Assembly: GCA_016839785.1 (NCBI GenBank)
Contig: JAEOTQ010000106.1
Coordinates: forward strand, 5,535-29,534
DNA length: 24,000 nucleotides
Direction: 5' to 3'
DNA from: Candidatus Hodarchaeota archaeon
GTDB taxonomy: Archaea > Asgardarchaeota > Heimdallarchaeia > Hodarchaeales > Hodarchaeaceae
Under the pieces are notes generated by a model. It was not told the DNA's origin and ran no database searches. It saw only the letters and a list, made by a program, of their open reading frames with translations. Shown here piece after piece: positions 20,465-23,911 of the stretch. Every line of letters begins with the position of its first letter. The stretch's first letter is position 1. The position numbers and the translations under genes are program-made.

Positions 20465-20751
20465 AATCCAATAACTTTAGGGATTACAGGTATTAATTCG
20501 AACCGATTTTCCCTTAATTTTACAGTTATGCTTCTTTAACTAAACTGAGTATTAAAATCCCTTCTCTCTTACATTAGAAAAGTTATAATTCCATATATAG
20601 AGTTAACCGAGCGTTTAAGTGTGTTTAAAATTGGAAAATCTAATTTGATCAATAGAATTACAAAATAAAATTGATTTACGAAGAGTGAATCAATCCTCCT
20701 ATAAAGGAATCAATTTCCTGAGAATATAGTGTGTATGGAGATGTTATTTGA

Positions 20752-21780
20752 TTGAAGGTATCTAACCAGGTTTTCGTCATCACCCTTATTTTGAGCACGA
20801 TACCCTTAGGCTTAGTTATTCTTCAACTTCAAAATGATGAAACAATTACTCCCAATGATGATTTTTTTGAATTATCGATCGGCAATATACCGACAATAAA
20901 TGTATCTACTTGGTTAATGCCAATAGAGGGTGAAATTGAAAATCCTGTTGTCTTTTCCTATGAAAATTTAACCTCCTTACCAACTCTAACGATTAATGCC
21001 ACTTTAAGAAGTGTAAGTGGAAATTCAGGAAGAGCAGAATGGCGTGGAGTTCCATTAAAAAATATATTAGATACAGTTCGACCTACTGAAAATGCTTATG
21101 ATGTGGTTTTTTATGCCGCTGATGGATACACTTCTTCATTAACAATAGAAGAAATTAACACCTCGGAAATTCTTCTGGTATTTGAAATGAACAAAGAAAC
21201 CTTACCAGCAGGTCAGGGTTTTCCGCTAAGAGTTATTGCACCCGGGTACTATGGCTACAAGTGGGTAAAATGGTTGATAAAAATCGATATTGTAGAAACT
21301 GATTATATTGGGTTTTGGGAATCTAGAGGATGGAATGATAATGCTCGATTTTCTATTGAACGTGATTGGTCAGTACATGCCCTTCTATTTTCAATTTCAT
21401 TTATGTTCGGCGTAGCATCAATGATGACGGGATTAAAATTTTCTAGAACCTCAATATTATTTAAGGATCTACCACGATTTATGAATCGGAGATTTCACCA
21501 CTTTTTATCATTAACATACGTGATTTCAGCTTTCATCGTGTTTATTTATTGGATCATTCAGACGTTAATCGATCGGGGGAGGATTTTTTATACACCACAT
21601 GGAATTGTTGGATTTATTTCTATATTGTTGCTGTTAGTAACTGCAATAACTGGGATGAAGAGAGTTATTAGAAATCCTGAATATAAAGGGGTTCATCGTG
21701 GATTATACTTTTGGGCAGTCTTCGTTTTCTTAGTTTCCATTGTATTAGGGTTGTTGCTTTCCATAGTTTTTTTCTATTAA
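20752..21780 (+). CDS. Fusion of an N-terminally anchored molybdopterin-oxidoreductase-like (sulfite oxidase/MsrP-YedY fold) domain with a C-terminal 4-TM His-bearing (b-type cytochrome-like) module; contains no cysteine
   Basis: TTG start. The N-terminal hydrophobic anchor is VFVITLILSTIPLGLVIL. Oxidored_molyb-like motifs follow: WLMPIEGEIENPVVFSYENLTSLP, AEWRGVPLKNILD, VVFYAADGYTSSL, LLVFEMNKETLPAGQGFPLRVIAPGYYGYKWVKWLIKIDIVETDYIGFWESRGW. Four hydrophobic helices then each begin with a His: H209, H249/H250, H283 and H315. The 342-aa translation contains zero Cys. Confidence 0.75.
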   Translation: MKVSNQVFVITLILSTIPLGLVILQLQNDETITPNDDFFELSIGNIPTINVSTWLMPIEGEIENPVVFSYENLTSLPTLTINATLRSVSGNSGRAEWRGVPLKNILDTVRPTENAYDVVFYAADGYTSSLTIEEINTSEILLVFEMNKETLPAGQGFPLRVIAPGYYGYKWVKWLIKIDIVETDYIGFWESRGWNDNARFSIERDWSVHALLFSISFMFGVASMMTGLKFSRTSILFKDLPRFMNRRFHHFLSLTYVISAFIVFIYWIIQTLIDRGRIFYTPHGIVGFISILLLLVTAITGMKRVIRNPEYKGVHRGLYFWAVFVFLVSIVLGLLLSIVFFY

Positions 21781-21874: not shown

Positions 21875-23911
21875 CTAATTTTCAATGACGAAAAAAATCC
21901 GAAATTTATCGCTGAGAGGAACATTCTTGAGATATAGCAAGTAGCTAACAAGGAAGCTCGAGAGAGCACCGTTTACTGAATTATCATTTACAACAGAAAA
22001 TAATTCGTCTTTGTTTGAATAATGTTTAAAAATTTTCACCGCAACCTTATAGGGGGATAGATTCAGAGTAGCTTTTAAGGGAGGCAAATCGATACGTTTC
22101 ATGATGGGTCCAAGGTTCTTTTCTTGGGAAAATAAAACAAACTGGATGGCGAAATTGGTTGAAAAATTTATTAAGCGTTTTCTACCTGGTGTTGGATTGA
22201 AAAGTAGTTTGATATTGTCGATTGAAGGACTATTCCGCAGGAATACAAGGAATTTCACAACCTCAGGTATTGTAGTGAAGCTTTGGAAGTCTAGTTCAGA
22301 TTTAATAGCAGAAAGCCACCAAGACAAGAAAGTATCTTGATTAAGATTGGAAGCGACAAACCAATTCCAGTCTTTCTTGAAGAGATGTTTTTGTGAGAGG
22401 TAAGTATCGCCAATTAAACCAAAGAATTCATCTAGAATGTTTGCACTCCCAAAGTGACGTAAGAGAGCGGGAGGATATGTAAACGAGGGCCAGAGTTCGT
22501 TGTATGAATATTTAATTTTCCCATTGACTGATGACCACGTATGGTTTAACGTGTCCTTCGAGGGGTGTATATAATCGTAAATTCTTGTTGCTTTGATAAT
22601 AAGACAAGAATCGAAGAGGCTACTAAGCCCAGCATCATCAGCTCGCTTTAATGTGATACGGATAGTTTCAGGAGTCGTTTCAGGGTGTCCTAAAAAGATG
22701 TTCCAAGATTTCAGGAAATCTCCAGGATTTAATGATTGGGGAGCTCTGAATATTCGTTCCTCCAAGGAAAAATACTTTTTCCCGCTGTGCCTGAACTCTT
22801 CTTTAATCACCTCTTTTGTTTGAGTGAAAAATTTGATAATCTCATCACTCTTTAGAGGGGGATTAATCGTTGCAAGATTGTGATCATCAAGAGAAACGAC
22901 ATCAGTAGATCCTCCACAAAAACCTGCTTTTCTGATGTGTTTGACTTCATCCACAGAGAAAGTCATCAGGTGCAAGGTGTACCACGATATTTTCTCGTAA
23001 TCCTCCCTCTCTTTATTAATTTCCAGTATACGATCTGCAAGATTCATAACAAACTCATTGCTCTCAGTATTAATTTCAGAGCAAATGAAAAACAGTTTAT
23101 TCAGTTGATACTTTCTAAGAAAGTTGATTTCATCTACTATAACATCTAAATCGCGGTATTGTACCTTTTTCCCTACAACCAAAGGTTCAGAGCAAAAGGA
23201 ACAAAGCTTTGGACAACCCCGAGACACTTCTATGGGAACACTAAGCTCCACATCCTCCCCTACAAACCGAGAATAGAATGCCTGTCGATTCTCAATAATC
23301 TCTGCAGTATATTCTTGACGTGAAGCAGGAGGGAAAAACTTGGAAGGACCTCTCTGAAGAGTCTCTGCTTGATAATAAATGAGATTAGCAATCTGATCTA
23401 AACTTTCTTGCACTAAAACGTCTTCAAAGTGTTCAAAAAAGGCATCAGGACCTCCAATAACACCATAATCGGGTTTAAGATATTTCATTAATTTTTCGGG
23501 CATAACAGAAAAACCATATCCCCCAATAACAATCGGTATATGTATCAATTTTCGAAGTGTTTGAATTAGATGTTTTGTTGCTTCGATTGGATAATATGAT
23601 AATGGTTCTTGCGATCGAGAAACGATAGGTTGGTGATAATTATAATTAGTAGGTAGTTTACTATACCTATCTACCTCCACTGTGTCTGTGTTTCTCAAGG
23701 TAATTAATATCATATCAAAAGAGGTTTTCTGCAGTAATTTCTGGAGATAAACTTCCCATTGATCTTCCGGAATCCCATACATATCGTTAGGGACAGTATG
23801 AACCCCATATCTATCTGCAATCTCTGAAACTTGCACGAACGCATAAGGATATAGCAACGCAGTTTTGAGATTGCTTGCATTAAGTAAAAGGATAGCTCTT
23901 TGAGGGCCCAT
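21875..23911 (-). CDS. B12-binding-domain radical SAM protein (class B-like) with ~250-aa uncharacterised C-terminal extension
   Basis: The CxxxCxxC cluster motif is SRGCPKLCSFCSEP (Cys233/237/240; nt 23192-23215). The N-terminal ~190 aa read as a Rossmann-like B12-binding-type domain (AILLLNASN..., IPIVIGGYGFSVMPEKLM, GVIGGPD). Residues ~430-678 have no motif I recognise. A GGGG(T) Shine-Dalgarno-like element lies ~7 nt upstream of the ATG. Confidence 0.85.
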   Translation of the reverse strand: MGPQRAILLLNASNLKTALLYPYAFVQVSEIADRYGVHTVPNDMYGIPEDQWEVYLQKLLQKTSFDMILITLRNTDTVEVDRYSKLPTNYNYHQPIVSRSQEPLSYYPIEATKHLIQTLRKLIHIPIVIGGYGFSVMPEKLMKYLKPDYGVIGGPDAFFEHFEDVLVQESLDQIANLIYYQAETLQRGPSKFFPPASRQEYTAEIIENRQAFYSRFVGEDVELSVPIEVSRGCPKLCSFCSEPLVVGKKVQYRDLDVIVDEINFLRKYQLNKLFFICSEINTESNEFVMNLADRILEINKEREDYEKISWYTLHLMTFSVDEVKHIRKAGFCGGSTDVVSLDDHNLATINPPLKSDEIIKFFTQTKEVIKEEFRHSGKKYFSLEERIFRAPQSLNPGDFLKSWNIFLGHPETTPETIRITLKRADDAGLSSLFDSCLIIKATRIYDYIHPSKDTLNHTWSSVNGKIKYSYNELWPSFTYPPALLRHFGSANILDEFFGLIGDTYLSQKHLFKKDWNWFVASNLNQDTFLSWWLSAIKSELDFQSFTTIPEVVKFLVFLRNSPSIDNIKLLFNPTPGRKRLINFSTNFAIQFVLFSQEKNLGPIMKRIDLPPLKATLNLSPYKVAVKIFKHYSNKDELFSVVNDNSVNGALSSFLVSYLLYLKNVPLSDKFRIFFVIEN

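Follow-up and report, generated by a model that had tools for sequence, protein, structure and literature searches.

This study examined a 24,000-nt window of the Candidatus Hodarchaeota archaeon assembly GCA_016839785.1 (contig JAEOTQ010000106.1, positions 5,535 to 29,534 of the forward strand; "the window" means this whole stretch, and its genome is designated G000) and, within it, a gene that joins a domain of the sulfite oxidase (SUOX) fold to a four-helix membrane module and carries Ser at the position of the molybdenum-binding Cys. The coding sequence is complete, lies at 20752..21780 on the + strand, starts with TTG and encodes 342 amino acids. The frame is closed by a TGA at 20749-20751, directly 5' of the TTG, so that the open reading frame (ORF) has no N-terminal extension, and the orthologues in two other genomes of the same genus (G061 and G062) start at the same TTG. 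A candidate promoter element (TATAAA, 20700-20705, +) and a candidate ribosome-binding element (GGAG, 20737-20740, +, 11 nt 5' of the start codon) may serve its expression. The protein contains no Cys, and this agrees with an earlier sequence-only reading of the DNA, which had described a Cys-free ORF of 342 residues with no in-frame extension.

The product is divided into three parts. The N-terminal signal-anchor, residues 1-26 (20752..20829, +), was delimited by helices 3-15 and 17-28 of an AlphaFold2 model, by charges and by comparison with family N-termini, and consists of a short n-region with a single Lys followed by a hydrophobic helix. The second part, residues 44-189 (20881..21318, +), is a SUOX-fold molybdopterin-binding domain (hereafter Mo domain) that is predicted to be extracytoplasmic, and the codon for Ser87 within it (AGT, 21010..21012, +) stands at the Mo-ligand Cys position, that of SorA Cys104. 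The third part, residues 205-342 (21364..21777, +), is a four-helix membrane module, probably of the DUF4079/cytochrome-b561 type, with four conserved His, all on the + strand: His209 at the predicted outer end of module helix 1 (21376..21378), His249 at the predicted inner end of helix 2 (21496..21498), His283 at the predicted outer end of helix 3 (21598..21600) and His315 at the predicted inner end of helix 4 (21694..21696). The AlphaFold2 model, built with 25 homologues, showed the same order, with a helix at the N-terminus, a domain rich in beta structure and then four long helices (206-229, 246-274, 282-307 and 315-341), with a predicted local distance difference test score (pLDDT) of 88.7 and a predicted template modelling score (pTM) of 0.78.

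The assignment of the central domain to the SUOX fold was supported by both profile and structure comparisons. The Pfam profile PF00174 (Oxidored_molyb) matched residues 44-189 over profile positions 2-169 of 169 (E 2e-35, 122.3 bits against a cut-off of 24), and Foldseek comparison of the N-terminal half with the PDB retrieved SorA, YedY, SoxC, sulfite oxidase and nitrate reductase at E values of 6e-14 to 1e-10 and root-mean-square deviations of ~2-3 Å. SorA was the best match in sequence (31% identity; 1.7e-34 for the family profile against SorA) as well as in fold (2blf, 6.8e-14, with YedY at 3e-12 and the PruR structures weaker, at 2e-7), and structures of the C185S mutant of sulfite oxidase were also among the Foldseek matches. 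The earlier call of a SUOX-type Mo domain without its ligand Cys is therefore upheld by the profile, the fold and the alignments that place Ser87.

Although the Mo domain resembles SorA, of the Starkeya novella SorAB (PDB 2blf), and sulfite oxidase in sequence and fold, it differs from them in several respects. The Pfam search found no dimerisation domain (PF03404) in the query, which also lacks the 17-residue hairpin inserted at the active site of sulfite oxidases, and alignment of the family profile with SorA showed that the position of Arg55 is variable and that of Tyr236 is occupied by Trp194. Moreover, the partner of SorA is a soluble heme-c protein, whereas here a b-heme-type transmembrane (TM) module is fused to the Mo domain. 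The NCBIfam equivalog scores stayed far below their cut-offs (SorA 103.6 bits against 600, SoxC 74.7 against 420, MsrP [NF003767] 62.9 against 207, and SorT 37.9 against 570). A sulfite dehydrogenase function was rejected on account of these scores, the absence of PF03404 and the unkept Arg55 and Tyr236 positions, and sulfite is an unlikely substrate because these two residues, the hairpin insertion and the dimerisation domain are all wanting.

The likeness to MsrP/MsrQ (YedY-YedZ) suggested by the sequence-only reading survives as an analogy of design and fails as family membership, since the Mo domain is nearer to SorA and sulfite oxidase and falls under all the equivalog cut-offs. In MsrP-MsrQ too, an outward-facing SUOX-fold Mo enzyme is fed by a membrane heme-b protein; however, that system consists of two polypeptides, with MsrP exported by the twin-arginine translocation (Tat) pathway and carrying Cys and with MsrQ built on a ferric-reductase domain, whereas the query is one chain with Ser and with no Tat motif.

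The Cys thiolate of the SUOX family is regarded as an indispensable Mo ligand. In an alignment of 25 full-length homologues, the family consensus ATLQCVEG.SGTAEW stood ungapped over the query sequence ATLRSVSGNSGRAEW, and the QC of the family profile aligned with the QC of SorA, which puts Ser87 at the Mo-ligand position. For comparison, a Cys-type family member from a genome other than that of the window reads LQCVEGPSGTALWKG. A single-sequence phmmer alignment, which laid Val88 over SorA Cys104, was rejected as a chance match of SGNS, as the family and profile alignments give Ser87.

The survey of homologues demonstrated that the loss of Cys is rare within the family. The ligand residue was Cys in 49 and Ser in 5 of 54 non-redundant full-length members, and the ligand column held Cys in 114 of the 120 best database matches, with Ser confined to the query's own cluster. 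Among the 30 best Asgard loci, Ser was found only in the window and in G061, and in a third genome of the genus, G062, the Ser-type gene is split across two contig ends; three further metagenome proteins carry Ser. The window's own genome additionally encodes a Cys-type paralogue (G000:C141, 347 aa) that is 49% identical. These data show that the absence of Cys is not a mark of the fusion architecture, as the sequence-only reading had taken it to be, and that while the fusion occurs in ~54 of 400 Asgard genomes, Ser is restricted to one genus. In the window, G061 and G062 alike, Ser87 is encoded by AGT, against TGT for the Cys of the paralogues in this genus, so that one T-to-A change suffices for the substitution. 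The possibility that codon 87 reflects a sequencing error or a pseudogene was dismissed in view of the AGT shared by three genomes, the Ser in the three metagenome proteins, the intact ORFs and a ratio of nonsynonymous to synonymous substitution rates (dN/dS) of ~0.1.

In a maximum-likelihood tree, the Ser proteins formed a single clade (100/100) with a long stem (0.82 substitutions per site), and this clade was nested inside a node (96/95) that also contained Cys-type clades. Ser is hence the derived state of one shallow monophyletic clade within one genus, and not a trait of the family. Of the columns whose conservation in the Cys type reaches at least 94%, only three had changed throughout the Ser clade, as C87S, T94R and A143V; a few other conserved columns vary in some members of the Ser clade, for example L56M and V162I in the query. 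The clade retains the PLR..P..GYKWVKW...GFWE.RGW.D motifs and all four His, together with T33, W97, D124, S128-S129, N147, G156-x-P158-x-R160, P164, G168-Y-K-W-V172, E190, G193 and D196. Pairwise Nei-Gojobori estimates of dN/dS for the Ser type were 0.10 overall, 0.13 for the Mo domain and 0.06 for the TM module, no higher than the 0.16 of the Cys-type paralogue in the same genus; the ratios are approximate owing to saturated synonymous divergence (dS >1), and the proportion of nonsynonymous differences (pN) was nonetheless far below that of synonymous ones (pS). The low dN/dS and the retention of conserved residues indicate that the Ser clade is not decaying.

Concerning the membrane module, DUF4079 matched residues 207-334 just below its gathering score of 31.4 bits, both in the whole protein (2.9e-6, 28.0 bits) and in the module alone (3e-7, 31.0 bits), and the Pfam family of eukaryotic cytochrome b561 reached E 0.094 with the whole protein and 0.016 with the module alone. 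The same searches on 17 related modules gave DUF4079 in 14 (best 1.5e-14), eukaryotic b561 in 10 (best 2.8e-5) and prokaryotic b561 in 3, and Ferric_reduct, the domain of MsrQ, was matched by neither the query nor any of these 17. Foldseek comparison of the C-terminal half retrieved cytochrome b561 (4o6y) and Dcytb (5zle), both at probability 0.99, and the TM domain of NOX5, with probabilities of 0.98-0.99 and E values of ~0.05 over the set. A profile of the TM module searched against PDB sequences returned only a chance match (an ACIII subunit, E 0.66) and was uninformative, so that the b561 likeness rests on Pfam and Foldseek. The MsrQ/YedZ type proposed earlier for this module was accordingly rejected in favour of a likeness to DUF4079 and eukaryotic cytochrome b561, as there is no Ferric_reduct match and four helices stand against the six of the MsrQ family. 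With cytochrome b561 and Dcytb the module shares the four-helix core, a His at each helix start and the alternation of faces, whereas eukaryotic b561 proteins have six helices and use ascorbate. No characterised DUF4079 member was found in the literature, where the name surfaces only in unrelated work; the fusion family offers a concrete redox partner for a DUF4079/b561-like module.

His209, His249 and His283 were present in 100% and His315 in 98% of the 54 members, which supports the predicted arrangement of four helices with one conserved His pair near each membrane face. When residues 200-342 were searched against 1.84 billion representative proteins, 37 matches were obtained, mostly the same fusion, and His was found at position 209 in 26 of 27 aligned residues, at 249 in 34 of 35, at 283 in 37 of 37 and at 315 in 35 of 35. 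Each His lies at a helix start within the AlphaFold2 boundaries, and this, together with alternating topology, would pair 209 with 283 at the outer face and 249 with 315 at the inner face. By analogy with the geometry of b561, His209 and His283 are proposed as ligands of an outer heme and His249 and His315 as ligands of an inner heme, and the module probably binds two b hemes in the b561 arrangement. Some of the matches are stand-alone proteins of 160-190 amino acids with a signal peptide, four TM helices and the four His, so that the module also exists apart from any Mo domain; five of these (P0131, P0135, P0139, P0140 and P0150) were seen to consist of a signal peptide, an acidic linker and the four-His four-helix module.

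Charge distribution and glycosylation sequons were used to place the Mo domain relative to the membrane. Averaged over 50 family members, the net charge was -1 in the 15 residues after TM1 and +3.5, +1.0 and +4.9 in the three inter-helix loops, and the n-regions of the family are basic (e.g., MNRKRK...), although that of the query has one Lys. The query contains the sequons NVS50, NLT72, NAT82 and NTS136, of which N72 is kept in 43 of 54 members, and its Mo domain is net acidic, with 13 K+R against 25 D+E. Because of the loop charges, the basic n-regions, the N72 sequon and the acidic domain, the Mo domain is probably located outside the cytoplasm, as the sequence-only reading had suggested.

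By an accepted rule, a Moco (molybdenum cofactor) domain with an extracytoplasmic role requires the Tat pathway for its export. In the query, which starts MKVSNQ, no twin-arginine motif was found at the N-terminus or internally, in agreement with the earlier observation; the orthologues start MKRS (G061) and MRRS (G062), so that a twin arginine is not conserved even within the Ser clade, and most family members have no canonical motif. In family f20, many of the proteins (e.g., L010, L015-L019 and L023) have N-termini of the pattern M(N/D)RKRK(M/I)(Y/F)LKY, an n-region that resembles RRxFLK with Lys in place of the second Arg and that may be either a non-canonical Tat signal or a plain basic Sec anchor. 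As a separate observation, G000 contains the C-terminal part of a TatC gene cut by a contig end (L001, G000:C48, 181-1695), adjoining NuoA-like and NuoB-like genes, so that a Tat system is encoded here at least in part.

When the family profile was run against 400 Asgard species genomes, ~54 of them, distributed over six GTDB families, proved to carry the full-length fusion, and database relatives are annotated as Promethearchaeota and Hermodarchaeota; the family is apparently confined to Asgard archaea. Several full-length matches in Asgard genomes other than that of the window are interrupted by one or two stop codons in frame (TGA or TAA; TAG in G002), namely those at G202:C21:27549-28568, G180:C62, G214:C32, G239:C13, G263:C105, G256:C125 and G002:C1, and they may be broken second copies or assembly errors. 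A third type of SUOX paralogue, of ~270-300 amino acids, was seen in many genomes of the host genus, e.g., L044 (G061:C20) and L045 (G066:C1:4374351-4374971), and was not found in G000; it consists of a signal peptide, a Cys-containing Mo domain, a Ser/Pro-rich linker and a single C-terminal TM anchor.

The nearest described architecture is that of the Sco3746 family, single-chain heme-b/Moco membrane proteins that are inserted by Sec and Tat together (Tooke et al. 2017, eLife, PMC5449189). In these proteins, likewise, an outward-facing short-hairpin SUOX Mo domain is joined to a TM bundle that carries His residues and is predicted to bind two b hemes, and the Mo domains of two bacterial relatives of this type, P0051 and P0089, are 35-37% identical over ~40% of the query. 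The order differs, however: in the Sco3746 type the Mo domain follows the TM bundle at the C-terminal end, whereas the query has an anchor, then the Mo domain, then four TM helices. The Sco3746 type also carries a conserved SRRxFLR Tat motif before TMD5, seen as SRRTFLR or GRRAVLR ahead of TMD5 in P0051 and P0089, whereas in the query the Mo domain lies between TM1 and TM2 with no Tat motif. The ligand residue of the Sco3746 type is Cys where the query has Ser, and the heme module of the query is DUF4079/b561-like.

Fused heme-b/Moco membrane proteins and Cys-less SUOX-fold proteins are thus already known, and the Mo/heme fusion, which the earlier reading had presented as a departure from separate polypeptides, is not new in itself given the Sco3746 family. 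What is new is the domain order of anchor, Mo domain and b561/DUF4079-type bundle, the absence of the Tat motif, and a natural Cys-to-Ser change in a SUOX site that is in all other respects fully conserved and is maintained by purifying selection. Searches of the literature on DUF4079, Asgard SUOX proteins and MsrPQ fusions, a coverage that did not take in the 2008 review of the SUOX fold (Workun et al.), found no account of this architecture. One further database protein, P0038 (315 aa), begins with a TM domain that bears His and continues with a Mo domain carrying the GFWESRGY family motif; it has no twin-arginine motif.

The genomic context of Cys-type members links the family to cofactor genes. 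In another genus, g53, two genomes (G199 and G216) carry a cluster composed of a substrate-binding protein (SBP), a permease, ModC (TOBE), the Cys-type fusion, moaC, moaA, moaE, moeA, a moaB-type gene and a second moeA; the Mo/W cluster loci are L046 (G199:C50, 5132-15520), L047 (G216:C5, 3722-13670), L048 and L049. G210 and G202 have the same genes in rearranged order, and in all four genomes the Cys-type fusion gene lies inside or adjoins the cluster. In a fifth genome (G214), MoaC lies ~3.3 kb from the fusion gene. That the linkage has outlasted rearrangement is good evidence for a tie between the family and Mo/W-cofactor metabolism. The idea that presence of the fusion tracks Moco biosynthesis was rejected, as MoaC was found in 22 of ~54 fusion-bearing genomes against 177 of 400 Asgard genomes overall.

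Taking these data together, we consider it moderately probable that the gene encodes a functional, membrane-integral oxidoreductase with two kinds of cofactor, in which an outer SUOX domain with a remodelled Ser site is served by a two-heme conduit. An N-in signal-anchor would hold the SUOX-fold domain, with its pterin-bound Mo or W cofactor, on the outer face of the membrane. The C-terminal bundle would bind two b hemes, the outer through His209/His283 and the inner through His249/His315, and these hemes would relay electrons through the membrane, linking the outer metal centre with a donor on the cytoplasmic side or in the membrane itself. By analogy, the logic would be that of MsrQ-MsrP and of the Sco3746 fusions, and electron flow would most likely run in the direction of a reductase. 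Of this reading, the architecture, fold, conservation, phylogeny, selection and the linkage of the family to Moco genes are shown by the data, and the binding of heme and cofactor, the topology, the direction of electron flow and the substrate are inferred. The copy in the window would represent an old paralogous lineage, so far seen only in one genus, in which TGT became AGT along with T94R and A143V on the long stem and purifying selection followed; such a site would be remodelled and not dead. Its likeliest form would be a Mo or W centre ligated by the Ser oxygen or a centre with no protein ligand, with altered redox tuning or an altered substrate. The two alternatives posed by the sequence-only reading, a Ser-ligated or otherwise non-canonical site and a repurposed cofactor-less domain, are still the right pair to weigh.

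The Ser clade is a natural counterpart of the classic C-to-S "dead" mutant, with the substitution of the laboratory C185S (3hbg, chicken sulfite oxidase) and C207S mutants set in an otherwise intact domain under strong selection, and it could serve as a natural test of whether a SUOX site can function with Ser or with no protein ligand. The Tat rule is also in play, as the fusion places a Moco domain between two membrane helices with no Tat motif in the query.

Several points weigh against this reading, and the first of them concern the site and its placement. The substitution of Ser for the ligand Cys nearly abolishes activity in sulfite oxidase, and we know of no natural Ser-ligated SUOX enzyme. 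To our knowledge, there is likewise no described assembly route for an outside Moco domain that stands between TM1 and TM2 with no Tat motif. Sulfite oxidase C207S loses the Mo-S Raman bands, i.e., the Cys-S-Mo bond is abolished (PMC9370002), and a working Ser-type site would therefore be unusual. In addition, the selection estimates are approximate, as described above, and heme binding, metal content and substrate are predicted properties.

The supply of cofactors raises a further difficulty. The sequence-only reading had proposed a check for Moco genes; this check came out negative for the host and positive for the Cys-type genes of g53, which sit in a moa/moe cluster. In G000 (84.5% complete), MoaC, MoaE, MoeA_N and the MoaA C-terminal domain were not found. 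MoaC and MoeA_N were absent in 20 of the 22 genomes of the host genus (g1: G000, G057-G077), the same two genomes having both, and this held even for the closed single-contig G066 and for genomes that are 96-99% complete; MoaE was absent in all six genomes of the genus in which it was sought (the host and five relatives). ALAD is needed for any tetrapyrrole. HemB/ALAD (PF00490) was found in 20 of 400 Asgard genomes, none of them with the fusion, and not in G000. With the Moco genes and HemB missing, both proposed cofactors would need to be imported.

The same genomes are nevertheless rich in pterin enzymes, with 7-13 AOR-family tungstopterin genes per genome in the six g1 genomes that were checked, and measurements on a Hodarchaeales strain in culture, which expresses heme proteins, have recorded heme B (bioRxiv 10.1101/2025.02.26.640444), which makes heme proteins credible in Asgard archaea. 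The missing biosynthesis is consequently not a specific argument against cofactors in the fusion protein, yet it puts their source in question. Many tungstopterin enzymes in the face of absent MoaC, MoeA, MoaE and ALAD would point to cofactors derived from partners or to unknown routes, and this in archaea related to the ancestor of eukaryotes.

An unlikely alternative is that the outer domain is a non-catalytic binder of pterin, molybdopterin (MPT) or Moco resembling PruR, which would be a receptor, a station for salvage or loading, or a means of keeping the ligand reduced by way of the heme conduit. Such a role might apply to the Ser type and perhaps to the whole family, and would involve no oxygen-atom transfer on a substrate. 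PruR (PDB 7kos, 7rkb), a SUOX-fold protein that lacks the Cys and is exported by Sec, binds pterins other than Moco in the periplasm (PMC11194511), and the fold match to it (E 2e-7), the extracytoplasmic location, which is predicted for the query, and the Sec-type anchor of the query, devoid of a Tat motif, all suit this comparison. So does the presence of 7-13 AOR genes per genome in the absence of MoaC, MoeA and MoaE, which would mean that the pterin cofactor comes from outside or by an unknown route, and the position of the Cys-type gene between a Mo/W transporter and moa/moe genes would fit a cofactor-handling protein as well.

On the other hand, PruR is a soluble protein of ~150 amino acids with Trp (in a PW motif) at the Cys position, a truncated hairpin, a shortened cleft and a cyclic di-GMP enzyme as its partner, whereas the query has a full-length PF00174 domain (profile 2-169), Ser instead of Trp, the family motifs and family-invariant residues kept, and a fused conduit of heme type. 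Furthermore, 49 of 54 members have the catalytic Cys, a residue that binding alone would not require, and the occurrence of MoaC in 22 of ~54 fusion genomes indicates that the family is not tied to auxotrophy. Nor do we know of a Moco or MPT uptake system in prokaryotes.

It is rather improbable that the Mo domain of the Ser clade is a dead pseudo-enzyme kept as a structural or interaction module, with the heme module acting alone as a transmembrane reductase of the b561 type. This explanation draws on the loss of the Mo-S bond that Cys-to-Ser causes in sulfite oxidase, on the existence of stand-alone four-His TM modules with a signal peptide and on the long stem branch of the clade. However, the Mo-domain dN/dS of 0.13 is similar to that of the Cys-type paralogue, the family-wide residues around the cofactor motifs are all kept, and the clade-wide changes are few and identical in all members (C87S, T94R, A143V), which speaks for retuning and not for drift.

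A more speculative proposal, to which we give only a small chance, is that the SUOX domain is exported unfolded by Sec and receives its pterin cofactor outside, or that it captures exogenous molybdopterin or tungstopterin and keeps it reduced for salvage. The proposal starts from hosts rich in pterin enzymes in which neither molybdopterin synthesis nor heme synthesis is recognisable. If true, the Ser clade would be either a specialised binder or the first natural Ser-ligated Mo/W centre in the sulfite oxidase family.

Finally, an inverted topology, in which the Mo domain would be cytoplasmic and would receive Moco by the usual route, with the four helices serving only as an anchor, is very unlikely: it would solve the missing Tat signal and suits the query's lack of a Tat motif and its n-region with one Lys, but it is opposed by the strongly basic family n-regions (MNRKRK...), by the acidic stretch after TM1 and the TM2-3 and TM4-5 loops at +3.5 and +4.9, by the N72 sequon in 43 of 54 members and by the acidic domain (13 K+R against 25 D+E).

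The surroundings of the Ser-type gene were compared with those in G061. The synteny is loose, with upstream genes common to both genomes, and no functional partner emerged from this comparison. Downstream and convergent with the fusion gene lies a gene (21875-23911, -) for a 678-aa radical-SAM protein with weak matches to B12-binding domains; it is not kept beside the Ser-type gene in G061, and a functional link between the two genes is therefore unlikely.

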